Shown: positions 6,421 to 34,441, numbered from the stretch's first letter. The stretch is 64,000 nt of DNA from an uncultured Bifidobacteriaceae bacterium (GCA_964356125.1 CAYHHH010000008.1:4337-68336), one strand, 5' to 3'. Made by a program: numbers and translations. The notes: a model not told the origin generated them from the letters alone.

Positions 6421-6447
6421 GACAATCGTCGCCCAGGAACTGACCTC

Positions 6448-9532: not shown

Positions 9533-10329
9533 GCCGTCGTCTCGTCGCCGCTGTCGCCTGCCGCAACCAGGGCGCCCGCCTGTACGGCAAGCCGCTTCAG
9601 AACCTTGACGTCGACCGTGGCGTTCGTATCATCGACAACATCATCGGCTGCTTGAAGAGCCTTCGCGATGTTGACGAGATCGTGCTCGGCATTTCAGAGG
9701 GCATCGAAAACGAAGCGTACCGCATGGTCGCCGAGCAGCACGGTCTCTCCTTCATCGTCGGCGACCAGAAAGACGTGCTGTGGCGTCTTGTGCAATGCGG
9801 TGACCAGGGTCACGCCACCGATATCTTTCGCATCACCAGCGAATCGCCCTTTCTTTACTTTGAGCCGGTCGCGCAGATGTGGCAGCGGCACCAGGCCGAG
9901 CACGCCGACGCCACTTTTCTCTGGGACATCATCGACGGCGCGGGGTGCGAAATCTACACCATGGAGACCCTGCGGGCCTCGCACGCGCGTGGGGCTGCGA
10001 AACACCGTTCCGAGCTGTGCTCGCTGTACGTGCGCGAACATCCCGAGGAGTTCAACGTCCTGCGCATCGATGCGCCCGTGGAACTGCGCCGCAAGGATGT
10101 GCGCCTGACGGTGGACTATCCGGAAGATCTGGTCGTGTGCCGTGCGGTCTACCGGGCGCTGCGCGCGCAGGCGCCGCGGCTGAGCGTGCCCGACATCGTG
10201 CGCTTTCTCGACGCGCATCCGCGGTTGCTCGAACTGCTGGCGCCGTATACCGAGGCGGGCTACGCCACCATGGACTTGTGGGGCGCCAAGCTGGCGGTGC
10301 CTCCCGGCGGTTCGCCAGAAAGGGCCTGA
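9529..10329 (+). CDS. SpsF-like cytidylyltransferase-family protein (CTP_transf_3-like)
   Basis: ATG 9529 inside ORF 9448..10329, ATGA-coupled. VAAVACRNQGARLYGKPL N-terminus and RLTVDYPEDL motif, typical of the SpsF/acylneuraminate cytidylyltransferase family. Confidence 0.8.
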   Translation: MSRRLVAAVACRNQGARLYGKPLQNLDVDRGVRIIDNIIGCLKSLRDVDEIVLGISEGIENEAYRMVAEQHGLSFIVGDQKDVLWRLVQCGDQGHATDIFRITSESPFLYFEPVAQMWQRHQAEHADATFLWDIIDGAGCEIYTMETLRASHARGAAKHRSELCSLYVREHPEEFNVLRIDAPVELRRKDVRLTVDYPEDLVVCRAVYRALRAQAPRLSVPDIVRFLDAHPRLLELLAPYTEAGYATMDLWGAKLAVPPGGSPERA

Positions 10330-14279: not shown

Positions 14280-15214
14280 AGACGATTCTCATTACCGGGA
14301 TAGGCGGTGACATTGGTCAGGGAGTGGCCAGGATCATCCGAGAAACGTTTCCGCATTGGCGACTGCTTGGCATGGATATCCACGAACGACATGGGGGTGC
14401 ACTCTTCGTTGAACAGGCCGTACGTGCGCCTGCCGTCTCCGACCCTGGGTACGATGCCTATCTCGCCGACCTGATCGCGCGCGAAGGCGTCGATCTATGC
14501 CTTCCCACTTCCGAGGCGGAGCTGATTCATTTGTCTCGAAGGTCACAGCCAGTGTTTGCCAATGCGGGGTTGATAATGGCGAATGCTCGGGCAATCGAGG
14601 TCGGCAGCGACAAGTTACTGACGGCCGAATTTCTCGGTTCGATTGGGGTTGCCCGGCCGTGGACGGTTCCGGCCGAGGCGTTCGCCGCGCAGACTCCGTT
14701 GCCTTGCGTCTTCAAGGCCCGCCGCAGCGCTGGATCAAAGGCCGTGTTCGTCTGCCAGAACAGCAGGGATGTGATGTTCTTTCGAGACCATCATCCGTCG
14801 GCCATCCTCCAGGAGCTTCTCCTCCCTGCCGACCGGGAAGTCACATGCGCGGTGTACCGGAGCCGGCATGGGCGGACGGTGGTCCTGCAGCTTCTGCGGA
14901 CCCTGGTCGGGGGATTCACCGGGTGGGCCGAGGTGATCGATGACCCTGAGGTGACCACACAGTGCACTCGTGTGGCGGAGGGGCTCGATTTGCGGGGTGC
15001 CATAAACGTGCAGTTGAGGGTGACACCGGCCGGCCCTCGGATTTTTGAGATCAATCCGCGCTTTTCCTCCACCGTGCTCATCAGGCACCGCATGGGGTTT
15101 CGCGATTTGGTGTGGGCGCTCCAAGAAAACGGTGGCGAAGAGGCAAGGTTCGTTCAGCCGCCTGCTGGAACAATCGGTGTCAGATTGCAGGATGCGGCGA
15201 TCTGTCATCGCTGA
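14276..15214 (+). CDS. ATP-grasp domain ligase
   Basis: ILITGIGGDIGQG pre-ATP-grasp Rossmann, VFKARRSAGSK and FEINPRFS (ExNPR ATP-grasp motif). GTGA overlap with the upstream gene. Confidence 0.75.
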   Translation: MKTILITGIGGDIGQGVARIIRETFPHWRLLGMDIHERHGGALFVEQAVRAPAVSDPGYDAYLADLIAREGVDLCLPTSEAELIHLSRRSQPVFANAGLIMANARAIEVGSDKLLTAEFLGSIGVARPWTVPAEAFAAQTPLPCVFKARRSAGSKAVFVCQNSRDVMFFRDHHPSAILQELLLPADREVTCAVYRSRHGRTVVLQLLRTLVGGFTGWAEVIDDPEVTTQCTRVAEGLDLRGAINVQLRVTPAGPRIFEINPRFSSTVLIRHRMGFRDLVWALQENGGEEARFVQPPAGTIGVRLQDAAICHR

Positions 15215-15228
15215 TCGAAAGAGAACTC

Positions 15229-16278
15229 ATGGCCACTAGTGCACTGTCCGAACAGCTGAAGCAATCGACTCGTCCGTTCATCATCGCGGAGATGTCGGGC
15301 AATCATAACCGCTCCTTGGAGCGCGCGTTGGCGATCGTGGACGGAGTGGCGAAGTCGGGCGCTCACGCGTTGAAGATTCAGACCTACACCCCCGACACGA
15401 TGACCATCGATATCAACGAGCGCGAGTTCCACATCAGCGATCCGAACAATCTGTGGGCCGGCCGTTCGCTCTATGAGCTCTACGGAGAGGCCTATACACC
15501 GTGGGACTGGCACGGACCCATTTTCGCGCGCGCGCGTGAGCTGGGTCTGATCGCCTTCAGCACGCCGTTCGACGACAGTGCCGTCGAGTTTCTCGAGAGT
15601 CTCGATGTGCCCTGTTACAAAATTGCATCGTTCGAGAACACCGATTTGCCTCTCGTTCGACGGACAGCCGCGACGGGCAAGCCCCTGATCATCTCCACCG
15701 GGATGGCCACCGTGGCGGAGCTCGACGAGACAGTTCGCGCGGCTCGAGAAGAGGGATGCACGGACCTCGTCTTGCTCAAATGCACCAGCACATACCCAGC
15801 GACCGCGGCGGACACCAATCTCGTCACCCTGCCACATTTGCGCGACCTTTTCGGCTGCGAGGTAGGCGTTTCAGACCACACCATGGGGGTGGGCGTTTCA
15901 GTCGCCAGCATCGCTCTAGGCGCTACTGTTGTCGAAAAGCACTTCACACTCAGCCGCGCCGAAGGCGGTGTGGACAGTGCGTTCTCGATGGAGCCTCATG
16001 AGATGTCCCAGCTTGTTGTCGAGACCGAGCGCGCCTGGCAGGCCATGGGACGGGTGACCTATGGACCAACAGCAGCGGAGAGGAATTCGCTGCAGTACCG
16101 ACGCTCCTTGTATGTGGTGCAGGACCTCGTGGCTGGCGAAGTACTTACGCACGTGAATGTCCGTGCGATTCGGCCAGGTCTCGGCCTGCCGACCAAGCAC
16201 ATTTCGCAGATCCTTGGGCGAACTGTGAGATGCGACATCAAGAGAGGAACCGCATTGACTTGGGAGTTGATCGGATGA
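15229..16278 (+). CDS. pseI: Pseudaminic acid synthase, PseI
   Basis: ATG 15229 inside ORF 15112..16278. IIAEMSGNHNRSLERALAIVD...GAHALKIQTYTPDTMT, GVSDHT, EKHFTL and a C-terminal SAF domain. Confidence 0.9.
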   Translation: MATSALSEQLKQSTRPFIIAEMSGNHNRSLERALAIVDGVAKSGAHALKIQTYTPDTMTIDINEREFHISDPNNLWAGRSLYELYGEAYTPWDWHGPIFARARELGLIAFSTPFDDSAVEFLESLDVPCYKIASFENTDLPLVRRTAATGKPLIISTGMATVAELDETVRAAREEGCTDLVLLKCTSTYPATAADTNLVTLPHLRDLFGCEVGVSDHTMGVGVSVASIALGATVVEKHFTLSRAEGGVDSAFSMEPHEMSQLVVETERAWQAMGRVTYGPTAAERNSLQYRRSLYVVQDLVAGEVLTHVNVRAIRPGLGLPTKHISQILGRTVRCDIKRGTALTWELIG

Positions 16279-16889
16279 GCTCGACCGCGGGTGCCTCGTG
16301 CCGATCCTCGGCTGACACGAGTCCGGAAGACGCCCCTGTGCTCACCGGCAAGCACTACCAGCTGGTGCCCTTCAACGAGTCCCTGGCGACGGACCGCTAT
16401 TTGGGCTGGTTGACCGATCCCGAGGTTACGCGTTTCATGGGAGTCCGGCACCAGCCCCAGACGCGCGAGACGGCCTTAGCATTCGTCCGGTCTTTTCAAG
16501 GCGCGACCAATAAATTCATGTGGGCGATCTTTCCCATTGGCGGAGCAGATCCGGTTGGTACTTCGACCTTGTACAACATCAACCGGAACCACGGCAGCGT
16601 GGAACTGGGCCTGATGGTTGGAGACAAGGCGCATTGGGGTCGCGGCGCGTCGGAGGAGACCATTCGCCTGTTAATCGCCTTCGCCTTTGGGCCCCTCGGA
16701 CTGCGCCGGATGACCGGTGGTTCCTATGCTTGCAACCACGGCATGAACTTCACCTACAAGAAACTCGGTTTCACTCGCGAGGGTCGATTGCGCTCGGCCT
16801 TGCAACTCTCACCGGGCGAATTCGTGGACGGATACCTTTGGGGGCTGCTGGCTAGCGATCCGGTAGTGCCACGAGCACCGGGATCATGA
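16275..16889 (+). CDS. GNAT-family N-acetyltransferase (PseH candidate)
   Basis: ATG 16275 ATGA-coupled to pseI. WGRGASEETIRLLIAFAF acetyl-CoA loop and GFTREGRLR C-terminal GNAT motif. Confidence 0.8.
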   Translation: MSSTAGASCRSSADTSPEDAPVLTGKHYQLVPFNESLATDRYLGWLTDPEVTRFMGVRHQPQTRETALAFVRSFQGATNKFMWAIFPIGGADPVGTSTLYNINRNHGSVELGLMVGDKAHWGRGASEETIRLLIAFAFGPLGLRRMTGGSYACNHGMNFTYKKLGFTREGRLRSALQLSPGEFVDGYLWGLLASDPVVPRAPGS

Positions 16890-18685
16890 TCGAGGCGGAC
16901 TCAACCCTCGCTGACATCGTTGCCGCTGCTCGCCCGGATCCAGCCGCTTACGCGGAGGCTGCAAGGCGCGTGCAATCAGAGGCCGGGGCACTGCAGCCCC
17001 TTCGAGTGGCGGTGATGGCGACCTCGACCGTCGAGCCGATTCGGCCCTATCTCGTTGTCGAAGGAGCGGTTCGCGGCCTGATCATCCAGCCGCGGTTTCT
17101 TCCCTTCAACCAGCTCGAGCTGCAGGTCCTGGATCCGAGCTCAGAGCTCAGGCGTGAATCGGTAGATGCGATCGTGATTGCATGCGGACTGAACGATTTT
17201 GCGCCGCGGTTGACATCGGGTTTTGTCGGCCTGTCATCGTTGGCAATCGACGATGAAGTGCGGGCGGTTGGCGACCGCCTAGGCCAGCTGCTGGACGGGA
17301 TACGCGGCTTCACGGATGCCGCCCTCGTCCTCTTCAACTTTGGTCCCGAGGCATATCTCGCGGCGGGACTGGCCGACCCGATGCTCGAGCCATCCCAAGC
17401 CTCGACGCTACAGCGTGTGAATGATGTGGCGGCAGGCTTGGGCCGCACACGCGCCGGCGTTAGCGTGCTGGACTACGCCCGGCTCGTCGTCGAGCACGGC
17501 CTGCGCCATTGGGTGGACCCGCGGCTGGTGTTCCGGGGACGCATTCCGTTCGGCGTGGTCGGGCAGCAGCAGACGGGCCGGGCACTCGCGCGCCACCTGC
17601 GCGCAACCCAGCGGCCGCCGTGCAAGTGCCTGGTGCTCGACCTCGACAACACCCTGTGGGGAGGCGTGCTTGGCGAGGACGGCCCGCAGGGGATTGCGCT
17701 GGGCGAAGATCACCCGGGCAACGTTTTCAAATCGTTTCAGCGTGCCGTCCTCGCGCTCAAGGACCGCGGTGTCCTGCTCGCTCTGGCGAGCAAGAACGAC
17801 GAGGCCGAGGCCAGGGCCGTGATTAACGGCCACCCTGACTGCCTGCTGCGCACGGCCGATTTCTCGGCGTTCCAGGTGAACTGGAATGACAAGGCGAGCA
17901 GCCTGGCGGCGATCGCCGCTCAGTTGTCGATCGGTATCGACGCGCTGGCCTTCTTCGATGACTCGCCCCAGGAGCGCGAGTGGGTCCGCAGCCGCTTGCC
18001 GGCGGTCACGGTCATCGACGTGCCCGCGTCGCCGCTCGGTTACGTCCATGCATTGATGGAATCGGGAGCATTCGATCACCTCTCGCTGACTGCCGAGGAT
18101 CGCGTCCGCGCGGAGCTGTATCGCCAGGAAGATGCCCGCGCCGCGCTGCAATCGCAACACGCGACGATCGCCGACTTTCTCGCCGACCTGGGGCTGAAGG
18201 TGACCATCGGAGGAATCGGGCCGTCGACCCAGGCGCGCGCGGCCCAGCTGATCGCCAAGACCAATCAGTTCAACGTCACCGTTCGCCGTCACTCCGAGGC
18301 GGAGCTGCAGGCGCTGCTGGCCGCCGGGGCCGAGGGGCTCTGGATGCGTGTCAGCGATCGCTACGGCGATGCGGGGCTCGTCGGTCTCGCCATCGCGGTG
18401 GCCACGGACGACGGAGTGTGGGAGCTCGATACACTCTTGCTCAGTTGCCGCGTCATCGGACGCCAGGTCGAGACCGCGTTGCTCGCGCAGTTGGCGGCGC
18501 GCGTGCGCGCGCGCGGTGGTCGCATGCTGGACGCGAAGCTGGTGCGAACGCCGAAGAACGCACCCGCGCACGACGTGTTCGACCGGCACGGCTTCGACGC
18601 CGTTGGCGACGGGCACTGGCGGCTTCCGCTCGATCGGACGATCGAGCGGCCAGAGTTTCTCGAGGTCACCGTTGACGAGTCCTGA
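16886..18685 (+). CDS. FkbH-like HAD-IIIC phosphatase/acyl-loading enzyme
   Basis: HAD motif I VLDLDNTLWGG, LALASKN and FFDDSPQE. C-terminal GNAT-like domain with LLSCRVIGR (candidate acyl-S-enzyme Cys). Confidence 0.85.
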   Translation: MIEADSTLADIVAAARPDPAAYAEAARRVQSEAGALQPLRVAVMATSTVEPIRPYLVVEGAVRGLIIQPRFLPFNQLELQVLDPSSELRRESVDAIVIACGLNDFAPRLTSGFVGLSSLAIDDEVRAVGDRLGQLLDGIRGFTDAALVLFNFGPEAYLAAGLADPMLEPSQASTLQRVNDVAAGLGRTRAGVSVLDYARLVVEHGLRHWVDPRLVFRGRIPFGVVGQQQTGRALARHLRATQRPPCKCLVLDLDNTLWGGVLGEDGPQGIALGEDHPGNVFKSFQRAVLALKDRGVLLALASKNDEAEARAVINGHPDCLLRTADFSAFQVNWNDKASSLAAIAAQLSIGIDALAFFDDSPQEREWVRSRLPAVTVIDVPASPLGYVHALMESGAFDHLSLTAEDRVRAELYRQEDARAALQSQHATIADFLADLGLKVTIGGIGPSTQARAAQLIAKTNQFNVTVRRHSEAELQALLAAGAEGLWMRVSDRYGDAGLVGLAIAVATDDGVWELDTLLLSCRVIGRQVETALLAQLAARVRARGGRMLDAKLVRTPKNAPAHDVFDRHGFDAVGDGHWRLPLDRTIERPEFLEVTVDES

Positions 18686-18697
18686 CGCGGCCACGGG

Positions 18698-19870
18698 GTG
18701 TTTGCCGGCATGACACCCGTAGTTGGACAGGTGTTCCATTACCGCCTCCGCATCGACGAGGCTCTCGTGGAGCAGTTTGCCGCGATGTCAGGCGATCGCA
18801 ACCCGATTCACGTCGATCGCGCCGCCGCGCGATCGTATGGCTTCGATCGCCCGGTTGCGCATGGCGCCATTCTGTTGTCGGCGGTATCGCGCATGATCGG
18901 CCTCGACATTCCCGGCCACGGTGCGGTGTGGATGAGCCAATCGGTGGAGTGGCTGTCGCCCACGTTCGTGGGCGATGAGATTGAGTTGTCGGTGACGGTG
19001 TCGCAGGTCTCTGCGGGTACCGGAATGCTCGGCCTCGACGTCGTCGCAAAACGGGCCGACGGCGCGGTCGTGATGACGGGGCATGGGAAGGTCAAGATGG
19101 GACAAAAGCTGGACGGACATACACCGACGCCCGACGGGCGTCGCGCGGCGCTCGTGACGGGCGCGTCCGGCGCTATTGGCGGCGCCATCGCGTTACGCCT
19201 GGCGGCCTCCGGCATTGCGGTCGCGGTGCATGCCAATCAATCCGCCGCCCGGGCTGAAGCGTTGCTCGGCGAGATTCGCGCCGCCGGCGGCAGCGGTTGC
19301 GTCGTGCTGGGTGACCTGGCGTCAGGCGAAGAAGGCGCGGCACAAGTCGCGGGCGCGGCGCTTGTGGAATTGGGGCGGCTTGACATTGTCGTGCATGCCG
19401 CCACGCCGCCCCTCAACACCGTGAGCGTCGACGAGCTTTCGATGGCGGCGTTCGAGCCGTACTTGCGCTCGTACCTCGGTGGTGCACTGGGCCTCCTGAA
19501 GGTCGTTCGCCCGGGCATGGCGCAACGGCGCTCAGGCCGCTTGATCTTCATCGGCACCGCCGCTGCCTCGGCACCGCCCCCGGGTTGGGCGCCGTACGTG
19601 GCCGCCAAGGAAGCGTTGTGGGGGCTGGTCAAGTGTCTTGCGCGCGAGCTGGGGCCCGACGGCATCACCACCAATATGGTGTCTCCCGGCCTGACGATCA
19701 GCGAGCTGACCGCCAACGTTGCGAGCCGGGCTAAGGAAGTTGAGGCGCGCCGCAATCCGCTCCGGCGCCTGGCCACTGCCGACGACACGGCGGCGGCGGT
19801 CAGTTTTCTCGCGTCACTCGAGGGAGGTTACGTCAATGGAGTGAACCTCCCGGTGACGGGGGGACTGTGA
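18698..19870 (+). CDS. Fusion protein: MaoC-like (R)-hydratase hot-dog domain + SDR oxidoreductase
   Basis: N-terminal FAAMSGDRNPIHVD (MaoC hydratase motif). C-terminal ALVTGASGAIGGAIA and YVAAKEAL (YxxxK). Confidence 0.8.
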   Translation: MFAGMTPVVGQVFHYRLRIDEALVEQFAAMSGDRNPIHVDRAAARSYGFDRPVAHGAILLSAVSRMIGLDIPGHGAVWMSQSVEWLSPTFVGDEIELSVTVSQVSAGTGMLGLDVVAKRADGAVVMTGHGKVKMGQKLDGHTPTPDGRRAALVTGASGAIGGAIALRLAASGIAVAVHANQSAARAEALLGEIRAAGGSGCVVLGDLASGEEGAAQVAGAALVELGRLDIVVHAATPPLNTVSVDELSMAAFEPYLRSYLGGALGLLKVVRPGMAQRRSGRLIFIGTAAASAPPPGWAPYVAAKEALWGLVKCLARELGPDGITTNMVSPGLTISELTANVASRAKEVEARRNPLRRLATADDTAAAVSFLASLEGGYVNGVNLPVTGGL

Positions 19871-19901: not shown

Positions 19902-20432
19902 ATGGTGATCTGGTTCGCGGGACTGTCGGGCGCTGGCAAGTCGACCCTGTGCGAGGCGATCTACGCGCGTCTCAAGCCGCGGATGCCGGAGCTCGTGTTG
20001 CTCGACGGGGACGCCATTCGCGCCGGCGTGAGTGCGGACCTCGGTTACACCGAGGCCGACCGCACCGTGCAGGTGTCGCGCGTGCAACGGCTCGCGCGGC
20101 TGCTGTCTGAGCAGGGACTCGTGGTGATGGTGGCCGTCGTGTATGCGAGCCCCGCGCTCCTGGAGTGGAACCGATCGCAGATCCCCGGCTACTTCGAGGT
20201 GCTGTTGGACGCCCCGCTGGCGCTCGTGACCGGCCGCGATCCCAAGGGTCTGTATGCGCGCGCGGGGCGCGGTGAGACGCGCGACGTGGTTGGCGTGGAC
20301 ATTCCCTGGCACCGCCCGGCCGCGTCTGATCTGGTGCTCGACGCCGGTGCCGGTGCCGGTGCGACCGTTGAGGAACTGGCCTCGCGCGTGGTCAACGCGG
20401 TTCCGGTACTCGCTGCGCGGTGGACGTCGTGA
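19902..20432 (+). CDS. cysC: Adenylylsulfate (APS) kinase
   Basis: WFAGLSGAGKSTL P-loop, LDGDAIR, DLGYTEADR and RDPKGLYARA. Confidence 0.9.
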   Translation: MVIWFAGLSGAGKSTLCEAIYARLKPRMPELVLLDGDAIRAGVSADLGYTEADRTVQVSRVQRLARLLSEQGLVVMVAVVYASPALLEWNRSQIPGYFEVLLDAPLALVTGRDPKGLYARAGRGETRDVVGVDIPWHRPAASDLVLDAGAGAGATVEELASRVVNAVPVLAARWTS

Positions 20433-21511
20433 TGGAGTTGGTGCTCAATAAGCGCCAGTATCTCGAGCTCGAGAAGATCGCGCTCGGCGCCTTCGCGCCG
20501 TTGACCGGCTTCATGGACGAGGCCGACTTTCACTCGGTGGTCGAGCGCATGCACTTGGCGTCGGGCGAAGTCTTCGCCCTTCCGGTCTTCCTCGATGTTA
20601 ACGAGAGCGTCGCGAACGCGGTGGCGCCGGGCGACACGCTGCGCTTGCTGTGGGAAAGGACCGTTGTCGGCGAGGTAGACGCGACAAGCGTGTTTACCTG
20701 TGACAAAGACGCGGCGGCGTCGCAGGTCTACGGCACGACCGATCTCACGCATGCCGGTGTCGCGCACTTCTTCAAGTTGGGCACGCACTTCATCGGCGGA
20801 CCAGTGCGGCTGACTGCCCGCGCCCAGTTTGATTTTTCCGCTCACGAGCTGACGCCGGCGGCCGCTCGCCAACGCTTCGCCGATTTAGGGTGGACGACGA
20901 TCGCCGGTTTCCAGACCCGCAACGTCCCGCATCGCGCTCACGAATACCTGCAGCGGGTTGCGCTCGAGCACGTCGACGGTCTCTTCATCCAGCCGCTGGT
21001 GGGATACAAGAAGCGCGGCGACTACCAGCCGTTGGCGATTCTCGCGGGTTACCAGGCTCTCCTGCAGACCTGCTTTCCGCCGTCGCGCGTGATTCTGGGC
21101 GTGCTGTCGACGTCCATGCGCTACGCCGGGCCTCGCGAGGCGGTGTTTCACGCCATCATCCGCCGCAACTATGGCTGTACGCACTTTGTCGTCGGCCGTG
21201 ACCATGCCGGCGTCGGCGGCTTTTACGGCAAGTACGAAGCGCACGAGATGACCCGCCGTTTCGATGGCGAGTTGGGCATTCAGATCCTGCGCCTGTCGGG
21301 GCCGTTCTACTGCCGCCGTTGCGGACAGATTGCCACTGAGAAGACCTGCCGTCATGTGACCGACGATCCCGGCGCGACTCACGAGATCAGCGGTAGCGAC
21401 ATGCGGCGCCTGCTGTCCGGCCTCGACGAGCCGGCGCCGGAACTGATGCGGCCCGAGGTAGTTGCCAGCCTCGCCGGCCAGCCGCTCTTTGTGGACGAGG
21501 ACGAAGCATGA
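20432..21511 (+). CDS. sat: Sulfate adenylyltransferase (ATP sulfurylase, Sat type)
   Basis: GFQTRNVPHRAHEYL and VVGRDHAGVG signature motifs. ATG 20432 overlaps the cysC stop; the alternative GTG is at 20420. Confidence 0.9.
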   Translation: MELVLNKRQYLELEKIALGAFAPLTGFMDEADFHSVVERMHLASGEVFALPVFLDVNESVANAVAPGDTLRLLWERTVVGEVDATSVFTCDKDAAASQVYGTTDLTHAGVAHFFKLGTHFIGGPVRLTARAQFDFSAHELTPAAARQRFADLGWTTIAGFQTRNVPHRAHEYLQRVALEHVDGLFIQPLVGYKKRGDYQPLAILAGYQALLQTCFPPSRVILGVLSTSMRYAGPREAVFHAIIRRNYGCTHFVVGRDHAGVGGFYGKYEAHEMTRRFDGELGIQILRLSGPFYCRRCGQIATEKTCRHVTDDPGATHEISGSDMRRLLSGLDEPAPELMRPEVVASLAGQPLFVDEDEA

Positions 21512-22923
21512 GCCTGCGGAAGATCGTCGCCACCATCGGCCCCGCGACCGCCAATGCCGAGAGCCTGCGCCAGCTGTTCGCCGCCGGGATGGGCGTGGCG
21601 CGGCTGAATGGCTCGCACGCGACGCTGGAGTGGCACGCCGCGACGATTGCGCTGCTGCGCGCCACCGTGCCGGACGTGCCGGTCCTGCTCGACATCCCCG
21701 GCCGCAAAATTCGCACCGGACGGCTCGTCCATGAACCGAGCTTCGCCGCCGGCGATCAAATCACGCTCACCACCGACACCGGGCATGACGGCACGCTCAA
21801 AGTCCCGGTGAACTACGCCGGCCTCCACGAAGACTTGCGGGCCGGCCACACCATCCTGGCCGACGATGGCCAGCTGCGGTTCACGGTGGTGCGCATTGAA
21901 GGGCGCGACATCGTGTGCCGGGCCGAGGGATCCGGCACCTTGAAGAGCGCGAAGGGCATCAACGTCCCGATGGTCACGCTGCGGACCGCGATGGTCACCG
22001 AGCGCGACCGCCAGATGCTGGCCTTCGCCCGCGAGCACGGTGTCGACTTTGTCGGCATCAGCTTCGTCGAAAGCGCGGCGCACATCCAGGCGATTCGGGA
22101 TCTGATTGGCGGCTCGCAGCCGGCGGTGGTGGCGAAGGTCGAGAACCAGGGCGCGATGGATCACCTGGACGAGGTGGTCGCGGCTGCGGATGCCATCATG
22201 ATCGACCGCGGCGACCTGTCGGTGGAAACCTCGCTCGAAAGCGTGGCGCTCTCGCAGAAGCGCATTCTGACCGCGGCCCGCCGCGTCGCCTGCCCGGTGA
22301 TTGTCGCCACCGAGATGCTGCACTCGATGATCACGAGCTCGAACCCCACCAAGGCCGAAGTGAGCGACATCACCAACGCCGTGCTCGACGGGGCATCGGC
22401 GCTGATGCTGTCGGGCGAGACCGCAGTTGGTGCGTTCCCGATCGAAGCTGTCGCCACCATGCGGCGGATCGTGGATCACGCGGACCGGTTCATGTCCGGA
22501 GAAGCTGGTCCGGTCGAAGGGAACAATGCCATACCGGCTGCGGTTAGCGCAGCGGTCGGCGTGGTGTGCGCCTCGGTCGCCGTGACCAAGATCGTGGCGG
22601 TGACCATTGCCGGTTTCGCTGCGCGGGCGTTGGCGAGCCAGTTGCCGAGGCAGCCGATTCTGGCCGTGACCAGCGACGCCGCCAAGGCGCGGGCGTTCAA
22701 CCTGCTGCCGGGGGTGACCGGTGTGCACGTCGACGTGCCGTTCTCACGACGCACGACGGATCACATTCCGCGGTGCCTCGAAGCGCTGTGGCGCCACGGG
22801 CTGCTGGTCGATCACGATCTGGTGGTGGTTGTCGCCGTAGGTTATCCGCGATCCGGTAATCGAATGAACATGCTGGAGGTCCACCGGATCGACGACCTCC
22901 GGCAGACGATGGGGTGGTTGTAG
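21508..22923 (+). CDS. pyk: Pyruvate kinase paralog (full length, divergent motifs)
   Basis: KIVATIGPA, AKVENQGAM, MIDRGDLSVE, VATEMLHSM, PTKAEVSD and LSGETA, plus a C-terminal alpha/beta domain. Deviations from canonical: LNGSHAT for NFSHG, and LDIPGRKIRTG for LDTKGPEIRTG. Confidence 0.85.
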   Translation: MSLRKIVATIGPATANAESLRQLFAAGMGVARLNGSHATLEWHAATIALLRATVPDVPVLLDIPGRKIRTGRLVHEPSFAAGDQITLTTDTGHDGTLKVPVNYAGLHEDLRAGHTILADDGQLRFTVVRIEGRDIVCRAEGSGTLKSAKGINVPMVTLRTAMVTERDRQMLAFAREHGVDFVGISFVESAAHIQAIRDLIGGSQPAVVAKVENQGAMDHLDEVVAAADAIMIDRGDLSVETSLESVALSQKRILTAARRVACPVIVATEMLHSMITSSNPTKAEVSDITNAVLDGASALMLSGETAVGAFPIEAVATMRRIVDHADRFMSGEAGPVEGNNAIPAAVSAAVGVVCASVAVTKIVAVTIAGFAARALASQLPRQPILAVTSDAAKARAFNLLPGVTGVHVDVPFSRRTTDHIPRCLEALWRHGLLVDHDLVVVVAVGYPRSGNRMNMLEVHRIDDLRQTMGWL

Positions 22924-22925
22924 GC

Positions 22926-23696
22926 ATGGGGCGTTCGAGTCACGCCGGGCAGGTTGGCGAGACGGATCGCGAGACGATCTTCGATCTCGCTGGCGAAGTC
23001 GAGTCTCTGGTGGAAACGACGGTGCCGGCGCCGCGGTTGCCGCGTATGGCTCCGAGCCGCTTGGTCACGCGGTTCGCGCTCAATGGCAACCGGATCGATC
23101 ACAGCCAATACGACGAGCAAGGCCGGTTGGTGTCCCGTTCCGAGTATCGATACGACGAGCAGGGACGGCGAATCGGCCCGCGATTTTACAAAGGCGATCC
23201 CGCAGCCCTGGATCACGAACTGCGCTTCGAGTACGACGAGACCGGCCGCCGCCGCGCACGCCAGGAGCAACGAAATGCCCTGGGCGAACTGATGTTCGTC
23301 CTCCACTTTGGCTACGACGCCACCGGTCGCCGCACCCAGGTTAGGTGGGTGCAGCCAGACGGAGGAGTGATCCGCACCTACCAGATAGGGTACGACGACT
23401 CGGGAAATCGGTCGCGCATTTCGAGCATCGATGGTGCCGGCCGGACGGAGTGGCGCTCACGTACATTCTTCGACAGCCGGGGCCGGTTGCGCCTGCTACT
23501 CAGGCACGAGATGCCGATTGGTCTCAGCGTCGAGTGGCGCTGGTACGGCCGCGACGACACGCGCGGTAACTGGACGCGCAGTGTGCGCTGGCGTGCCTGG
23601 TTGGTCCGCAAGGTGATACCTGTCGTCACGCGTGAACGCATCGAACGCGAAATCGCCTATGCCCCTCACGTCGGGCCAGGCTTGGGGACACCCTGA
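22926..23696 (+). CDS. Small YD/RHS-repeat protein
   Basis: Six YD-type repeats (YDEQGRLV, YRYDEQGRRI, FEYDETGRR, FGYDATGRR, IGYDDSGNR, FFDSRGRL). No obvious signal peptide. ATG 22926 sits right after the pyk stop. Confidence 0.6.
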   Translation: MGRSSHAGQVGETDRETIFDLAGEVESLVETTVPAPRLPRMAPSRLVTRFALNGNRIDHSQYDEQGRLVSRSEYRYDEQGRRIGPRFYKGDPAALDHELRFEYDETGRRRARQEQRNALGELMFVLHFGYDATGRRTQVRWVQPDGGVIRTYQIGYDDSGNRSRISSIDGAGRTEWRSRTFFDSRGRLRLLLRHEMPIGLSVEWRWYGRDDTRGNWTRSVRWRAWLVRKVIPVVTRERIEREIAYAPHVGPGLGTP

Positions 23697-24664
23697 TGCC
23701 TGTTGTCTCGCACGCTTTGAACGTAACCCCGACGGTGGTTCTCATCGACGGGCTCACGCGATCAGGCAAGTCGCTCCTGGGACCGGTCCTCTCCAGCTTT
23801 GACCGGGTCGAGATCGAGCGGCTTGAGCCGGACGTGGAGTGGATGGGTGACCTGGCCCACTTAGGCCGGGTCGAAAGAGATGCTGCTGTGACCTTCTTGC
23901 GCCTTACGGTCGATCGCTTGTTTTACGAAGGCTTGATCGGTCGCAATACCAACTTCCGATTTGGCGATCATTCGAGTGTGTGGCGCGCGCCGTCGCGTTG
24001 GCGATACTTCCGGCGCCTGTTGTTGGACGAGCGCCTGCCGCTGCTGGACCGAGTGGCCAATGAAAGGCCGATTTTCCAGAACATGGTGCATCACCAGTTG
24101 ATGAACCTACCGCTCTACGCCGAGGCGTTTGGCGACCGTCTTCGAATGATTGAGATGGTTCGCGACCCCGTTGATCTGATTGATTCCTGGATGCGCAAGG
24201 ACAAAGGCGCCTTGATCGGAAATGATCCGCTGATCAGCATGGTATTCATCGAACGTGGCGGCAGGGAGCTGCCGTGGTACGCCGCCGGCTGGGAAGATGA
24301 GTACCTGGCCGCAAGCCCGCTCGACCGTGTGATCCGTCTCATCGCGACCAAATGGCGGCTGTCGATCGACGCTTGGCGGGCGGCCGACGAGACCCTTCGT
24401 TCGCGGCTGTTGATGATACCGTTCGAGGACTTCGTTCAGAGAACGGGCGACTACATCGACTGTCTGGGATCTTTCGTCGGCACCAGACCCACCCGGCGCA
24501 CCGCAGCCATGCTGCGATCCCAGCGATGTCCCCGCCTCTACGAGCGCTCCAAACGCGATGAGCGGTTGCTCCGCTTTCGGCGAGATGCCGGGCCCACTGC
24601 CCGGGCCGCGCTGGATGCGATGGTTGGCGAGCACGGCCAGGTAGCCACAGAAATTGCGATCTGA
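23696..24664 (+). CDS. Putative PAPS-dependent sulfotransferase
   Basis: 5'-PSB-like loop GLTRSGKS near the N-terminus and 3'-PB-like MVRDPVDLIDSW. Genomic context with sat/cysC. Confidence 0.7.
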   Translation: MPVVSHALNVTPTVVLIDGLTRSGKSLLGPVLSSFDRVEIERLEPDVEWMGDLAHLGRVERDAAVTFLRLTVDRLFYEGLIGRNTNFRFGDHSSVWRAPSRWRYFRRLLLDERLPLLDRVANERPIFQNMVHHQLMNLPLYAEAFGDRLRMIEMVRDPVDLIDSWMRKDKGALIGNDPLISMVFIERGGRELPWYAAGWEDEYLAASPLDRVIRLIATKWRLSIDAWRAADETLRSRLLMIPFEDFVQRTGDYIDCLGSFVGTRPTRRTAAMLRSQRCPRLYERSKRDERLLRFRRDAGPTARAALDAMVGEHGQVATEIAI

Positions 24665-24683: not shown

Positions 24684-26615
24684 GTGACCGAGGCGACACT
24701 GCCCTACAAGCTGCGGATCCGCACGGGCGCTAGCGCCCAAAGCTCTTCTGCCTCGCCGACTGAGATCCACCGCACGGCGGGCTTCGTTGTCGAGGCCTCC
24801 GGCGACGTTACGTCCTGGTGGGAGACTCCCGAGGTGCGCGTCATTCTGGCCGGGCAGGTAGACGGCGTCCGCACGCGAGCCGGCGGGTGGCGTGAGTCGT
24901 CGGGGGGGCGTGACCTGGCGATCGATCCGGCCAACCCGGCACGGTCGGCGGACAAGATCGAGGGGCGCTTCGTGCTCGCGGTGGTGGGCCCTGGCGACCG
25001 TTGCTGGGTCGGGACCGATCGCTACGGCCGCGCCGACGTCTTTATATCCGGGACGGGTAGCGACCTGACACTCGCTACCGACCTTTCGCTCGTGTCGTCG
25101 CCCGGCAACGGCGGGTACGACCAGCCCGCGCTGGCACACACTTTGGTAGCGTATGGCTGGCGCGCCCCCAAACGGCACACTGCGTACGCTCGGGTGAGTC
25201 GGCTTGGTGTAGGCGAGTCGATAGAGGTCATCAATGGCCGCGGCACACGTGCGCAGCGCGAGTTCGTACCCGCCATCGCCGCGCCATTGAGCACTCGCAG
25301 TTTGAATGAATACGCGGACCGGCTGCTCGAGAGCGTGCGATTGCGAGCGTCGCGCCACGGCAACGTTGTCTTCCTCTCTTCGGGATGGGATTCGACATCG
25401 ATTCTGGCGTGTCTGGTGCACCTCTTCGGCCCCCGCAAGGTCCGAGCGGTCATCGGCCGGATGCGGTATGCCGACCGCAGCGGCGTGATCAATCAGTTCG
25501 AACTCGATCGGGCACGCGCCGTCGCGGATTACTACGGAGTGAAGCTTGAGGTGGCCGAGTTCGACTACACAAGAACGGCCCCTGCTCAGTGGGATCGCGT
25601 GAAGGGGCTATTTCTCGAGCACAACATCGCAAGCATCACGGGCCTCAACCACTTTGCCCTAGCCGACCACGTGGCGAGGACGACACGGGGCGACGAGGCC
25701 GTGTTCGCCGGCGAGATTAGCGATGGTGCCCATAATCTCGGCTTCAGCCAGTTCGTCACGGTCTTCCATGCAACTCAGGCGTTCCGTGAGTACGCCGACA
25801 AGATGGCGGGCTACCTTTATGGGCCGACTTTCTTCGGGTTGTTGCAGGATGGCAAGCACGAGTCCGACGAGGTCTTCGGATTCCTGCGGCGGAGGATGGG
25901 GCAGGCGGCGGTTGACGAGCTGGCCCCGGCCGGCGCCGCCCGAACGCAGCAACTGTTGTCGAGTTTCTTCCTCAGAGGGACGCGTTTCCCGCTGGGTTCC
26001 CTCCGGAACACGCGGGTGCTTCACCCGGCAGGGCAGCAGATCTATGCTGAGTCGATGGAACGTGCCTATCTCGCGGAGGCGGCTCAGGCCCTGACCCCCG
26101 AAACCATGTACGCGTGGTATCTCCATTTGTACAATTCGTTTCACTGGCAAGGATCGACCGTGGCGACCCTCGCGCTGACGGGTGAAGCAATGGGATTGCG
26201 GATGGCGCTGCCGTTCTGGGACAGCCAACTCCAGGACAGCCTGTCCGCACTACCCGAAGAGGCTGGGCGCGGGCTTGACTTGCACCCCACGAAATACCCA
26301 CTCAAGTGGACACTGGAGCACCGTCTCGACTACCCGTTTCACCTTCAGGTTGGGCCGCACTCGTATTTGTATGACGTCGACCCATCGTTCAGTCACTCCG
26401 CTGAAGTGCTGTATGCCTCGTCGCTGAAGCTTGTGTTCAGGGAGGCACTGCAGACCCGAAGGTATCGCGATGTTCTTGACGAGAGTGTCTTCGATCTCGC
26501 GTACCTAGATTCGATCGTCGACCACTACCTTGCCGGAGACGAAGTCCGCGGCGCCGAGTTAGGCGATCTTATGTCGCTGGCGCAGGTGGCTTCCGTTGGT
26601 TGGTACGGCCGGTAA
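24684..26615 (+). CDS. Asparagine-synthetase-B-family ATP-dependent amidoligase lacking the N-terminal catalytic Cys
   Basis: PP-loop variant VVFLSSGWDSTS. AsnB-like C-terminal domain. The N-terminus (VTEATLPYKL...) has no MC(G) nucleophile. GTG 24684 preceded by AAAGGA; the alternative TTG is at 24654. Confidence 0.75.
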   Translation: MTEATLPYKLRIRTGASAQSSSASPTEIHRTAGFVVEASGDVTSWWETPEVRVILAGQVDGVRTRAGGWRESSGGRDLAIDPANPARSADKIEGRFVLAVVGPGDRCWVGTDRYGRADVFISGTGSDLTLATDLSLVSSPGNGGYDQPALAHTLVAYGWRAPKRHTAYARVSRLGVGESIEVINGRGTRAQREFVPAIAAPLSTRSLNEYADRLLESVRLRASRHGNVVFLSSGWDSTSILACLVHLFGPRKVRAVIGRMRYADRSGVINQFELDRARAVADYYGVKLEVAEFDYTRTAPAQWDRVKGLFLEHNIASITGLNHFALADHVARTTRGDEAVFAGEISDGAHNLGFSQFVTVFHATQAFREYADKMAGYLYGPTFFGLLQDGKHESDEVFGFLRRRMGQAAVDELAPAGAARTQQLLSSFFLRGTRFPLGSLRNTRVLHPAGQQIYAESMERAYLAEAAQALTPETMYAWYLHLYNSFHWQGSTVATLALTGEAMGLRMALPFWDSQLQDSLSALPEEAGRGLDLHPTKYPLKWTLEHRLDYPFHLQVGPHSYLYDVDPSFSHSAEVLYASSLKLVFREALQTRRYRDVLDESVFDLAYLDSIVDHYLAGDEVRGAELGDLMSLAQVASVGWYGR

Positions 26616-26657: not shown

Positions 26658-28559
26658 GTGGGCGTGCGGTTGGCGGCCGATCGAATGCGGGGCCGCATGA
26701 CGTCGAGCGAACTGTGGCTGCTCGACGGCCCTCCCAACACAGTCCGGGCCCGGCTGATCGCGCAACTGCTGACCCTTGTTGGTGTGCAGTGGAAGGAAGC
26801 GCGGTTTTTTGCCGGTCATCTTCGGACGCCCAGTAGGGAGGCCGTGCGCCCGGCGGCGCGAAGGCTCGCGTTCCGAATGGCGTCCGACGCAGCGACCGAG
26901 CTATTGGTTCACTCGTCGCTGTTGTCGCGGTTGAATCAAGAGTGGGGCCGCAACACGCTCACGTTGTTCTTGGCCCGACGGCTTTGGCCGGCCGCGGAAC
27001 GGGTCGCGTTGCGGGCGCTGGTAGCCGAGGCGCTTGCCCGCCAGCGCGGCGGTGGCGCCCGCGTGATGCTGACCTGGCCTGTCGAACTGCCCCAATTGCT
27101 GTCCACCCTCTCGGGGGCGATGTCCCCGGGTGTTTCGGTAGGCATCGGCGCACTTGATCGCGGCACGTGGCGTAGGTCCCAGGTAAGCCATCAGTATCGT
27201 CGCGGGACGCGGTACGCGCGAGTTCTGGCGCTCGTCTGGCTCGCTCGAAACGCGATTCGGCGGCCTTTAGCAATCAGTGGTGTTGCCGCCAGTCCTAAGG
27301 ACCTTCCCGCGATCCTTCTGCTGCAAGAAGACGACATTTCCCTCGATCACTCCTATCGCAGCCAGCCGCACTGGCTACGGCCGGGCACCGGTCCGCCACC
27401 CTTCCGCACCGTGATCCTGTGCGCGGGCGGCCCGGCGCGCATCAAGACGACGGCCGATGAGCTCGCCGCCCTGCGCATCGAGACTGTCGAAGCCAACGAG
27501 ATGTGGGCTGGTGTTCGGCAGTGCGCAGAAGGTCGGCGGCTTGTCCGGCAGGCATGGCGCATCGCCTTGCTGGCGCTGTTCGCTCGCCGAGGCAACACCG
27601 GCCGGGCGATGTCGGAGGTGGCCCGGCTGACAGCCACCGCCGCCGCCATGGCGGCCTTAGTGAAGCGTCATGGTATTCGGGCCTTCATGACATGCGAAAA
27701 CTACATGGTTCACGCTGACGCCATGCAGATCGTCGCTGGACCCCTCGCGGTCCGCACGTTGTCGTATCAGTACTCGAGCCTGCCGTATCCGAGCCTCGCG
27801 CTCATCACCACGGCGGATGTGGTGGCCACATTCTCGGAGCAGTACCACGACCGTTGGCGCTGGCCAGGATTCCGACCTCCGGAATTTGTCGATAGTGGGT
27901 ATCCCTACGATGCGAGCTTCGTGCTCGTCCGACAGCGGGCCTTGGCGTGTCGTGCGCGACTGCAGGCCGCCGGCGCGAGTTTTGTGGTCGGGGTCTTCGA
28001 CGAGAGCGTCGAGCGGGAGCGCTACGGGCTAGTTCACGCGGATGAATATGAAGCGCAGCTATTTGCTCTCCTGGACAAAGTGTCCAGAGATTCTTCGCTT
28101 GGATTGGTGTTCAAGACGCAGTTCCTGCACAACTTGGCCGGGATCTCGGAAGGATTGCGGCACGCCCTGCTGGCCGCCCAAGCCACGGGCCGGGTCGAGC
28201 TCCCCGCCGTTGGCACGCACCGTAACGTGGTGTTTCCGGCTGAAGTCGCGATGGCATCCGACATCACGGTCGGCTATGTCATCGGGGGCACAGCCTCACT
28301 CGAGTCCGCGCTGGCCGGCGCCCGGAGTGTGATCGTCAACTCCTACGGGTTCGTGACTGATATGGACGATCTCTTTGCCCAGGCCGACATCATGCTGCCG
28401 ACGCTGGCCAATGCTCTCGAGGCCATCGACAGCCATCGACGTGGAGAACGGCCGCTGCTGGGAGATTGGACCAGCATTCTTCCGTCGTTTGACCACTATC
28501 GTGATGGCGGTGCGGCCGATCGATTGAAGGAAGTCGTGGCTCGAGCCACTGGCCAATAG
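26658..28559 (+). CDS. Large hypothetical protein with GT-B-like C-terminal half (candidate unusual glycosyltransferase)
   Basis: No family motif recognised in the N-terminal half. C-terminal LGLVFKTQFLH ... DITVGYVIGGTASLESALAGARSVIV resembles the donor-binding Rossmann of GT-B enzymes. Alternative ATG start at 26697. Confidence 0.45.
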   Translation: MGVRLAADRMRGRMTSSELWLLDGPPNTVRARLIAQLLTLVGVQWKEARFFAGHLRTPSREAVRPAARRLAFRMASDAATELLVHSSLLSRLNQEWGRNTLTLFLARRLWPAAERVALRALVAEALARQRGGGARVMLTWPVELPQLLSTLSGAMSPGVSVGIGALDRGTWRRSQVSHQYRRGTRYARVLALVWLARNAIRRPLAISGVAASPKDLPAILLLQEDDISLDHSYRSQPHWLRPGTGPPPFRTVILCAGGPARIKTTADELAALRIETVEANEMWAGVRQCAEGRRLVRQAWRIALLALFARRGNTGRAMSEVARLTATAAAMAALVKRHGIRAFMTCENYMVHADAMQIVAGPLAVRTLSYQYSSLPYPSLALITTADVVATFSEQYHDRWRWPGFRPPEFVDSGYPYDASFVLVRQRALACRARLQAAGASFVVGVFDESVERERYGLVHADEYEAQLFALLDKVSRDSSLGLVFKTQFLHNLAGISEGLRHALLAAQATGRVELPAVGTHRNVVFPAEVAMASDITVGYVIGGTASLESALAGARSVIVNSYGFVTDMDDLFAQADIMLPTLANALEAIDSHRRGERPLLGDWTSILPSFDHYRDGGAADRLKEVVARATGQ

Positions 28560-33050: not shown

Positions 33051-33644
33051 TTGAGGATGCTGCGGCACTCAGCTGACATGCACTGGCTTCTACGTCGGCT
33101 CGTCCAGCTACCGAACTATATCGCGCGGCGTGCGCGCCGATTGTGGTACGCACAGAGATTGCAAGGCCTCGGACCAGGCGCCGACTTGGGACCTCACCTA
33201 CTCGTTCTCGGCGCCGACAGGATTCGCGTCGGCGCGAACTTTTCGTGTTGGCGGCTGTGCACGCTCGCGGCCGCCGGCGGCCGGCTGGAGATCGGCGACC
33301 GCGTGTCGCTTAACGCCAACGTCTATCTCAATGCATGTGGGGGCCACATCACGATCGGCAGCGACGTGCTGATTGGGCCCAATGTCGTCATGCGGGCGAC
33401 CGACCACATCTTCACCGACCCAGCTCGGCCGATCCGGGAACAGGGGCACACCGCAGGCAACATTGCGATCGAGGATGATGTGTGGCTGGGTTCCAATGTG
33501 ACCATTGTGGGCGGCGTCCGCATCGGCCGCGGATCGGTGGTCGCGGCGGGAGCGGTGGTGACGCGCGATGTTGAACCGGGTTCGATCGTGGGCGGAGTCC
33601 CCGCCAGGCTGCTGAAAAAGCGGGGTAGCGAGGTGTCCGAATGA
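33051..33644 (+). CDS. Left-handed beta-helix (hexapeptide-repeat) acyl/acetyltransferase
   Basis: Hexapeptide repeats IGDRVSLNANVYL, IGSDVLIGPNVV, IEDDVWLGSNVTIVGGVRIGRGSVVAAGAVV and a GGVPARLL tail. TTG 33051 or ATG 33057. Confidence 0.85.
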   Translation: MRMLRHSADMHWLLRRLVQLPNYIARRARRLWYAQRLQGLGPGADLGPHLLVLGADRIRVGANFSCWRLCTLAAAGGRLEIGDRVSLNANVYLNACGGHITIGSDVLIGPNVVMRATDHIFTDPARPIREQGHTAGNIAIEDDVWLGSNVTIVGGVRIGRGSVVAAGAVVTRDVEPGSIVGGVPARLLKKRGSEVSE

Positions 33645-34441
33645 TTGTGACTGCCTGCGATCTCCTCGCCCTGGGGATGGACGCCTGTGACAGGTTTCAT
33701 GTTCTCAATGTGCAGCCCATTCTTGTTCGCACTAAACCCGACGGCACGGCTGTGACGCGCGTTGACACCGAGATCGACCTTTTCTTGCGCGCGCGCTTGA
33801 TACGTGTGGTGCCAGACGCGGGGTGGTTGTCGGAAGAGAGTGGCGCCGATCCCGATCGGCTCACTCGCTCGTGCTGCTGGGTCGTCGATCCGCTGGACGG
33901 CACGAAGGAGTTCGCTCGAGGCATTCCTGAGTGTGCGATATCGGTTGCACTGGTTCACCACGGGGTTGCGGTTGCGGCAGTGGTCGTCAATCCCTTCAAC
34001 GGGCTGGCCGCGGCGTGCGGCACCGATGGCACCTGGATCGCCTCTGGAGAGGGATCCAGCCGGCCGCGCGCGGCAAGCCTGATGACTGCCGGCGCCAGTG
34101 TCAGCCGCACGGAAGTGGAAGACGGTTCGATCACGCCGTTTCTTGAGCGGGTCGGGACCGCGCGCCCGATTGGCAGTGTGGCGTACAAGCTGTTGCGCGT
34201 CGCGGTTGGCCTCGACGACTTGACGTTCTCGGTACAGCCTAAGTCTGAATGGGACATCTGCGGCGGCGTGGCCCTTCTCGCGGCGCAGGGATTGGCGTTC
34301 GAGCGGCTCGACGGCCGGACCCAGGTGTTCAATCAGGCTGCGACGCGGATTCCGGTGGGGTTCGTCGCTGGCCCTCCTCACCTTGCCCGCGAACTTGCCA
34401 GCCAACTCCGATCGGCGCTGCCGACTGAGGGTGCCTCCTGA
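33641..34441 (+). CDS. Inositol-monophosphatase-family phosphatase, likely 3'(2'),5'-bisphosphate nucleotidase (CysQ-like)
   Basis: WVVDPLDGTKEF and WDICGGVALL IMPase/CysQ motifs. The cluster also encodes PAPS synthesis and a sulfotransferase. Confidence 0.75.
   Translation: MIVTACDLLALGMDACDRFHVLNVQPILVRTKPDGTAVTRVDTEIDLFLRARLIRVVPDAGWLSEESGADPDRLTRSCCWVVDPLDGTKEFARGIPECAISVALVHHGVAVAAVVVNPFNGLAAACGTDGTWIASGEGSSRPRAASLMTAGASVSRTEVEDGSITPFLERVGTARPIGSVAYKLLRVAVGLDDLTFSVQPKSEWDICGGVALLAAQGLAFERLDGRTQVFNQAATRIPVGFVAGPPHLARELASQLRSALPTEGAS

Follow-up and report, generated by a model that had tools for sequence, protein, structure and literature searches.

Gene content of the locus

The window analysed here is a 64-kb stretch of DNA (64,000 nucleotides, 65% GC) from an uncultured Bifidobacteriaceae bacterium, nearly all of which is occupied by a single plus-strand array of about 60 genes. 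Positions 19902 to 24664 hold a run of five genes on this strand, which we propose to be involved in the sulfation of a surface glycan. They encode an APS (adenosine 5'-phosphosulfate) kinase of 176 aa (cysC, 19902..20432), a Sat-type, that is homo-oligomeric, ATP sulfurylase (sat, 20420..21511), a pyruvate kinase (PK) with barrel and C-terminal domain (pyk, 21508..22923), a soluble YD/RHS-repeat protein of 256 aa (22926..23696) and a sulfotransferase-fold protein of 322 aa, the sulfotransferase candidate (ST, 23696..24664). The cysC stop and the called sat start, an ATG at 20432, overlap in TGATG, sat and pyk overlap in ATGA, a 2-nt spacer separates the pyk stop from the YD start, and the YD and ST genes again overlap in TGATG. 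By these overlaps and the short spacer the five genes form one translationally coupled run, as stated in the original prediction, an earlier note on this DNA made from the sequence alone. That note had named the APS kinase, the ATP sulfurylase and the ST, all three of which are present, but its list was incomplete, as pyk and the YD gene were overlooked. A consensus scan found no promoter-like or terminator-like signals above chance within 16-36 kb. Transmembrane segments are absent from all five products, except for one hydrophobic stretch within the PK fold.

The motifs on which the original prediction was built were all recovered from the translations. The APS kinase sequence WFAGLSGAGKST is present in that of 19902-20432, QTRNVPHRAH and GRDHAG in that of 20420-21511, and the two signatures for binding of PAPS (3'-phosphoadenosine 5'-phosphosulfate), TRSGKS and RDPVDLIDSW, in that of 23696-24664. 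They are not chance strings, because each of them sits inside a domain supported by hidden Markov models (HMMs).

According to our analysis, the product of 19902-20432 is predicted to be an APS kinase, which would convert APS and ATP to PAPS and release ADP. It matches Pfam APS_kinase (PF01583) with E 1.1e-35 and 123.4 bits (cut-off 21.1) and NF004041 with 134.8 bits (cut-off 127), and it scores slightly below the cut-off of TIGR00455 (133.9 versus 138.7 bits). The P-loop GLSGAGKST and an LLDGD motif are present, and the best PDB matches are all APS kinases, with 7yq0 (E 2e-27) aligned over the full length. Sat, encoded directly downstream of CysC, matches the ATP-sulfurylase domain PF01747 (E 4e-78) and PUA_2 (PF14306, E 1.5e-32), passes TIGR00339 (335.1, cut-off 322.95) and NF003166 (420.3, cut-off 387), and keeps the active-site motifs QTRNVPHRAH and VGRDHAG. 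With HMM scores above curated cut-offs for both enzymes, the assignment of sulfate activation to Sat and CysC is supported.

A pyruvate kinase associated with sulfate activation

The pyk product matches PF00224 (E 2.7e-87) and PF02887, scores 402.8 against the TIGR01064 cut-off of 306.4, and aligns end to end with Escherichia coli PykF (6.6e-77), with the motifs RLNGSH (RLNxSH), KVEN, DRGDL and ATEML kept. Its segment DIPGRKIR resembles that of the Lys-117 enzymes, which we take to be the K+-independent type of pyruvate kinase.

In order to describe the wider distribution of the gene run, related loci (designated with L numbers) were compared. A contig search with a 13-sequence ST alignment retrieved the closest genome, an uncultured Acidobacteriota metagenome-assembled genome (MAG; L001/L008), in which cysC, sat, pyk, the YD gene, ST and an asparagine synthase (AsnS)-like gene are syntenic with the window at 54-72% identity. 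An Elusimicrobia MAG (L009) shows the order cysC-sat-pyk-IMPase-ST, where IMPase denotes the inositol monophosphatase superfamily, and L040 the order cysC-sat-pyk-ST. Triads of cysC, sat and pyk were found in L001, L009, L023-L025, L026 and other loci, and they recur, with the order kept and the genes coupled, in glycan clusters of MAGs of Acidobacteriota, Elusimicrobia, Alphaproteobacteria and others. More than 120 relatives of the window PK share at least 60% identity with it. All three homologues sampled among PK relatives (62-64% identity; L023-L025) lie in such triads within glycan clusters, which hold NeuB, Epimerase_2, DegT, Capsule_synth or other sulfotransferases.

A scan of metagenomes returned 80 PK loci. 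Among the clade PKs (at least 45% identity) that had at least 1.2 kb of upstream sequence (n = 24), sat lies immediately upstream in 15 and within the locus in 17, while it is upstream of none of the 34 PKs below 45% identity. In addition, the PK barrel, PUA_2 and ATP sulfurylase are fused in a single open reading frame (ORF) in L007 (16483-18819, 778 aa) and L020 (16113-18317, 734 aa). Two further PK-Sat fusions were seen, one ending at a contig edge (L016, 2587-4184) and one split over two ORFs (L015, 4484-6683). The fusions are devoid of the PK_C domain, and cysC follows directly downstream in L007 and L020. Because of the gene fusion and a gene order conserved across phyla, the evidence for a functional link between PK and Sat is strong, and on these sequence grounds there is likewise strong evidence that the pyruvate kinase belongs to the sulfation module. 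In the open-access literature searched, we found neither a PK-Sat fusion nor a cysC-sat-pyk operon described.

It could be argued that sat, cysC and pyk are ordinary assimilatory and glycolytic genes that lie in a glycan locus by chance, and that the ST takes its PAPS from the general pool of the cell. CysC, Sat and PK do all look fully functional and pass equivalog-level models. Nevertheless, we regard such a coincidence as unlikely, because the coupled triad recurs in the same order in glycan loci of several phyla and because PK-Sat fusions occur in four loci. The genes also have no cysH, cysIJ or glycolytic neighbours, and the lack of an upstream sat among all 34 of the more distant PKs speaks against it as well.

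To much the same degree we doubt that the PK serves the sugar pathway instead, by supplying pyruvate to the HpcH-type aldolase (39036-39968) or the E1 components (59822-61869) or by phosphorylating another 2-hydroxy or 2-oxo acid. Pyruvate-using enzyme families and an FkbH-type glyceryl loader are indeed encoded in the cluster, and E1/E2 genes are also found nearby in L001 and L007. However, the PK and ATP sulfurylase are physically joined in L007, L020, L016 and L015, the PK directly follows sat in triads whose other neighbours differ, and its catalytic motifs are those of a canonical pyruvate kinase.

If the PK acts in sulfate activation, its most economical role would be to restore ATP from the ADP that CysC releases, at the expense of phosphoenolpyruvate (PEP). 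In vitro PAPS cascades yield almost no PAPS if the PK/PEP module is left out, because APS kinase is trapped in a dead-end complex of enzyme, ADP and APS (PMC9885120). The co-translated PK might have a comparable function in the cell.

A second Sulfotransfer_3 protein of about 430 aa is encoded directly upstream of PK-Sat in L020 (14818-16113) and L016 (1261-2553), and these loci may therefore sulfate two positions.

The sulfotransferase-fold protein

The ST has no NCBIfam match, and a direct search of its sequence against the PDB gave noise only and no similarity. As the thresholds of Pfam and NCBIfam are not reached, we assign it from the evidence of its family, its profile matches and its fold. 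In a collection of 5.8 billion proteins 86 relatives were found, none of them functionally named (at most "hypothetical protein"), although about one third carry precomputed matches to PF00685 or PF13469. When a 45-member profile was searched against the PDB, nearly all of the 42 matches listed were sulfotransferases, the best being the CurM ST (E 2.7e-4). The structure prediction proposed along with the original prediction supports the assignment. An AlphaFold2 (AF2) model built on the 45-member alignment reached a predicted local distance difference test score (pLDDT) of 94.7 and a predicted TM-score of 0.92, and its top 25 Foldseek matches in the PDB are all PAPS-dependent sulfotransferases (probability 1.0), including TPST1/2 (TPST2 8.8e-7), the OLS ST, the CurM ST, Stf9, Stf1 and Teg14. 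The modelled product of 23696-24664 thus has a sulfotransferase fold.

All 19 non-redundant ST loci preserve the 5'-phosphosulfate-binding motif (5'-PSB, [TP]R[ST]GK[ST]) and the 3'-phosphate-binding motif (3'-PB, R[HD]P[VI]D..[SN]). Among the 45 aligned sequences, P158, E39 and H132 are invariant and K25 and R156 almost so. E39 and H132, which are candidates for the catalytic base (Glu or His), are also invariant across the 19 loci. E39 sits 17 residues past the Arg of the 5'-PSB loop, like the Glu that follows this loop in the TPST and CurM type. The window ST thus shares the fold, the P-loop-like 5'-PSB (TRSGKS) and the 3'-PB (RDPVD...S) with TPST, the CurM and OLS STs and the mycobacterial Stf1 and Stf9. 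It differs from these solved sulfotransferases in its low identity (10-15% only) and in a conserved GRNxNFRxxD loop and TH[DH] motif of its own; its acceptor, unlike theirs, is probably a nine-carbon sugar acid. An exhaustive search with the family HMM yielded 695 clusters, represented at 50% identity, with E<=1e-30, and 1271 with E<=1e-10, which, as judged by profile similarity, makes this a sizeable unannotated sulfotransferase family. We predict the window ST to be a soluble PAPS-dependent O-sulfotransferase that acts on a glycan.

A candidate PAP phosphatase

Sulfate transfer from PAPS leaves the by-product PAP (3'-phosphoadenosine 5'-phosphate), for which a phosphatase encoded at 33641..34441 on the plus strand had been put forward. 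This protein matches Inositol_P (PF00459, E 4.8e-35) and carries the metal-binding motifs of the IMPase superfamily (DPxDGT and WDxxxG) as VVDPLDGT and EWDICGG. Homologues directly follow pyk in L009 (44% identity) and L026 (56% identity), and in L001 a homologue is encoded some 9 kb downstream, matching the layout of the window; none was found within 8 kb of the triad in L023-L025. Its place right behind the triad in two loci, L009 and L026, points to a possible link with PAPS turnover, and we posit that the enzyme is a plausible candidate PAP phosphatase.

The glycan cluster and its likely acceptor

The window as a whole is, as far as its gene families tell, a glycan cluster for nonulosonic acids of the pseudaminic (Pse) or legionaminic (Leg) type. 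A NeuB-type nonulosonic acid synthase (NeuB E 3.3e-82, with SAF domain) is encoded at 15112..16278 on the plus strand and a second, divergent NeuB at 8516-9532 (E 3.7e-32). A PseB/PseC-like pair (Polysacc_synt_2, DegT) lies at 5365-7644, and CMP-sugar synthetases at 36330-37127 (CTP_transf_3, E 7.7e-38) and, as a weak match, at 9448-10329. The cluster also contains GNATs, an ATP-grasp protein, a metallophosphoesterase, many methyltransferases, GT2 and GT4 glycosyltransferases, an ABC exporter, a multi-span membrane protein and an initiating Bac_transf (61734-62609).

In 13 of the 19 non-redundant ST loci, NeuB and the ST are no more than 10 kb apart, and three of the six loci without NeuB are contigs of 8 kb or less. 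NeuB immediately adjoins the ST in L010, L019 and L020, and L015 shows the order NeuB, GNAT-CMP-transferase, PK-Sat, ST. Owing to the frequent proximity of NeuB, a nonulosonic acid is the likeliest acceptor. Directly upstream of cysC, the window (16886-19870) encodes an FkbH-type HAD-IIIC/GNAT protein, matched by TIGR01686 with 277 bits, and a MaoC dehydratase fused to an SDR. The sugar may thus bear an N-acyl group of the glyceryl or hydroxyacyl kind. L001 has an acyl carrier protein (ACP) with E2, E1alpha and E1beta at this position instead. As these upstream N-acyl genes vary and the ST is kept, we favour the sugar core over the acyl side chain as the target. The product might accordingly be an O-sulfated nonulosonic acid, formed in the cytoplasm on a precursor or nucleotide-sugar, a suggestion to which we would give slightly less than even odds. 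In the open-access literature searched, no description of bacterial sulfated Pse, Leg or neuraminic acid (Neu) was found. In environmental extracellular polymeric substances, sulfate and nonulosonic acids are both chemically common, and sulfotransferases are hard to detect by BLAST (PMC10483923).

Proposed function and its alternatives

We interpret the genes at 19902-24664, together with the phosphatase gene at 33641-34441, as a dedicated PEP-driven PAPS supply and an O-sulfotransferase of a nonulosonic-acid surface glycan cluster, with a probability of roughly 0.72. Sulfate would be adenylylated to APS by Sat, and CysC would convert APS to PAPS with release of ADP. The co-translated PK would then use PEP to turn ADP back into ATP, which may sustain the unfavourable activation and avoid the dead-end CysC-ADP-APS complex. 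The ST would pass the sulfate group of PAPS on to the glycan, or to a precursor of it, at a hydroxyl that most likely belongs to a nonulosonic acid, and the IMPase-family enzyme may finally hydrolyse the inhibitory PAP to AMP. The sulfated glycan foreseen in the original prediction is supported at the level that computation allows, by the HMM matches of Sat and CysC, the ST fold and the motifs.

Several points weigh against this interpretation. All evidence is computational, and the source genome was read as the 64-kb window, in which neither a sulfate transporter nor a pyrophosphatase was found. The Pfam search that had been suggested for 23696-24664 did not confirm a sulfotransferase, as Sulfotransfer_3 scores 19.9 bits, below the gathering score of 27, and the TM-scores of the ST model to solved sulfotransferases are modest (0.35-0.54). 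The phosphatase had been described as IMPase/CysQ-like, of which the superfamily stands and CysQ finds no backing by sequence: the best NCBIfam model, CysQ TIGR01331, reaches 84.6 bits, far below its cut-off of 228.8, and HisN and IMPase models score alike. The PDB search is indecisive as well, with IMPase, SuhB and HisN outranking CysQ, and in the window some 9 kb separate the gene from the ST, though both belong to the same gene array. Regarding the PK, about one quarter of the clade members in the metagenome scan are without sat nearby, and the cell-wide ATP pool makes a private PK seem unnecessary, so that it could have another role. Finally, ST homologues with 45-48% identity in L006, L010, L012 and L017 adjoin homologues of Cj1418, Cj1417, Cj1416 and Cj1415 and no sat. 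As such close homologues sit in sat-less loci, PAPS is not certain to be the donor for every family member.

This last observation could mean that the ST-fold protein uses another 3'-phosphonucleotide as donor and transfers a group other than sulfate. In the O-methyl phosphoramidate (MeOPN) pathway of Campylobacter, for instance, phosphoramidate comes from 3'-phospho-CDP-amidate. The ST sequences from sat and MeOPN-like contexts do not separate from each other. For the window we judge such a donor to be less probable still than the two explanations discussed above. A tblastn search with the L006 homologues (E 1e-3) did not find the GATase, the NTP_transferase, the PPDK-like kinase or the 421-aa partner protein of the MeOPN-like loci in the window, which instead has a bona fide Sat. 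Moreover, sat is present in 7 of the 19 ST loci and in L040, and the MeOPN-type loci could use housekeeping PAPS for their ST. As the MeOPN-like genes are absent from the window and Sat is present, PAPS is the expected donor there.

Least probable, in our view, is that the ST is a TPST/RaxST-like protein tyrosine sulfotransferase directed at, for instance, the adjacent Tyr-Asp-rich YD protein rather than at a sugar. In its favour, the best Foldseek matches are tyrosylprotein sulfotransferases and the YD protein is rich in acidic Y-D/E motifs. Against it, the YD protein is too rare to be a likely substrate (with the ST in 3 of 19 loci, versus 13 for NeuB, and only two clusters of close relatives in the 5.8 billion proteins), the TM-scores to TPST (0.40-0.49) are no better than those to polyketide and glycolipid sulfotransferases, and the genes lie amid a sugar-tailoring operon.

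Relation to known sulfation systems

In Sinorhizobium meliloti, NodP/NodQ together with NodH (and LpsS) are responsible for the sulfation of Nod factor and lipopolysaccharide. A dedicated PAPS supply with a carbohydrate sulfotransferase in a glycoconjugate locus is thus already known from rhizobia, and as in the window, a dedicated copy of the sulfate-activation genes is placed with the PAPS-dependent enzyme. However, NodPQ is a GTPase-coupled sulfurylase of the CysDN type fused to CysC, whereas the window has the Sat type, a separate CysC and in addition a PK. Its ST family also differs from NodH, and its context is a nonulosonic acid cluster. Coupling or fusion of the sulfate-activation steps is likewise found in PAPS synthases, such as the animal PAPSS1/2 and the Sat-CysC fusions (Aquifex, 2gks). 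In these the sulfurylase is fused to APS kinase, while the window and related loci add PK as a partner.

The in vitro PAPS cascades, consisting of ATP sulfurylase, APS kinase, PK/PEP and pyrophosphatase, follow the same enzyme logic with removal of ADP by PK (PMC9885120). They are man-made, whereas the window holds a natural operon, known from its genes, which elsewhere occurs with a PK-Sat fusion; no pyrophosphatase gene was seen in the window. The locus may thus represent a natural counterpart of the hand-assembled, ATP-regenerating cascade (PMC9885120), and the PK-Sat fusions could aid enzymatic sulfation. O-sulfation of sialic acid is documented in vertebrates and echinoderms, where it is performed by type II membrane sulfotransferases of the Golgi (PMC9304399). 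The product class would be analogous if the acceptor in the window is a nonulosonic acid, although the animal enzymes are of the Golgi-membrane type, unlike the window ST. Should this acceptor be confirmed, O-sulfation would join the known modifications of bacterial sialic-acid-like sugars.

In the MeOPN pathway of Campylobacter, the capsule is decorated from a 3'-phosphorylated nucleotide donor, the product of a CysC homologue. In comparison, Sat takes the place of the set of glutamine kinase, amidase and cytidylyltransferase in the window, where the donor should be PAPS. The MeOPN gene set of Campylobacter jejuni comprises Cj1415-Cj1418 (PMC3907429), and the similar set in our loci consists of a PPDK_N/PEP-utilizers kinase, a GATase (Peptidase_C26), an NTP_transferase and an APS-kinase-like protein. 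This MeOPN-like set and a conserved 421-aa protein were observed beside ST homologues (36-48% identity) in L006 (1-3860), L010 (4617-9708), L012 (3533-7087), L017 (9302-16342) and L005 (7177-8506), with no ATP sulfurylase. L020 has both the MeOPN-like set and PK-Sat. The 421-aa partner was considered as another sulfotransferase and rejected, as it shows no similarity to the second ST of L020 and only weak GDSL/DUF6473 matches. Some members of the ST-fold family might transfer phosphoramidate from 3'-phospho-CDP-amidate.

The original prediction had called dedicated sulfation cassettes uncommon, which applies to characterised bacteria and does not extend to metagenomes, where they are frequent. 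Four features appear to be new, namely the combination of Sat, CysC and PK (with natural PK-Sat fusions in other loci), the IMPase as a frequent partner, the unannotated ST family, and the tie to nonulosonic acid clusters of uncultured phyla. More speculatively, and with rather less confidence than for the acceptor, we suggest that cysC-sat-pyk, with or without IMPase, is a horizontally spread and so far undescribed "PEP-driven PAPS generator" that has become a bifunctional PK-Sat in some lineages. On this broader view, the 322-aa protein would found a family of nonulosonic-acid O-sulfotransferases (about 700 clusters at 50% identity), part of which may have been re-used with a phosphoramidate donor, and sulfated bacterial sialic-acid-like sugars would be widespread in uncultured Acidobacteriota, Elusimicrobia, Nitrospirota, Omnitrophota and others. 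The locus offers a candidate family for the sulfotransferases of environmental biofilm matrices, which are hard to find by homology (PMC10483923).

Neighbouring genes and further observations

The YD protein matches RHS_repeat (E 3.6e-6) and TIGR01643. Its AF2 model (pLDDT 78) is an all-beta hairpin sheet, and the Foldseek matches are Rhs/YD shells that give no functional clue. Homologues adjoin pyk or PK-Sat only in L001 and L007, and the YD protein is an optional member of the module. Downstream of the ST, 24684..26615 on the plus strand encodes an AsnS-like, adenylating protein with a weak Asn_synthase match (E 8.7e-4) and without the N-terminal glutaminase cysteine. Homologues flank the ST in L001 (61% identity) and L007 (38% identity), and the protein may be involved in amide or amidine tailoring. 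It is followed on the same strand by a soluble protein of 633 aa (26658..28559) with no Pfam or PDB match and no transmembrane segments, and then by an ABC exporter (28563-30356). The 633-aa protein is a conserved neighbour of the ST, with homologues in L001, L007 and L006, and in L006 it also precedes an ABC exporter. Searches of the YD, AsnS-like and 633-aa proteins against PDB sequences returned nothing usable.

Unusual carbon-chain builders for a sugar pathway are encoded further downstream, namely an HpcH/HpaI aldolase (39036-39968), a transaldolase/FSA-family protein (57110-57883) and E1alpha/E1beta thiamine components (59822-61869). The window also contains an HTH_24/MarR-type regulator (4267-5055). 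Beside cysC-sat-pyk in L023 (4134-5308) and L024 (11239-12359), a comparable HTH_24 gene forms a pair with a gene of the NusG family (RfaH-like), which hints at antitermination control of long operons. Large proteins with weak similarity to Capsule_synth (KpsC/KpsS-like) are encoded at 41586-43556 in the window and near the triads in L025 (4902-6389) and L023 (13015-14490), hinting at an assembly route like that of group 2 capsules.

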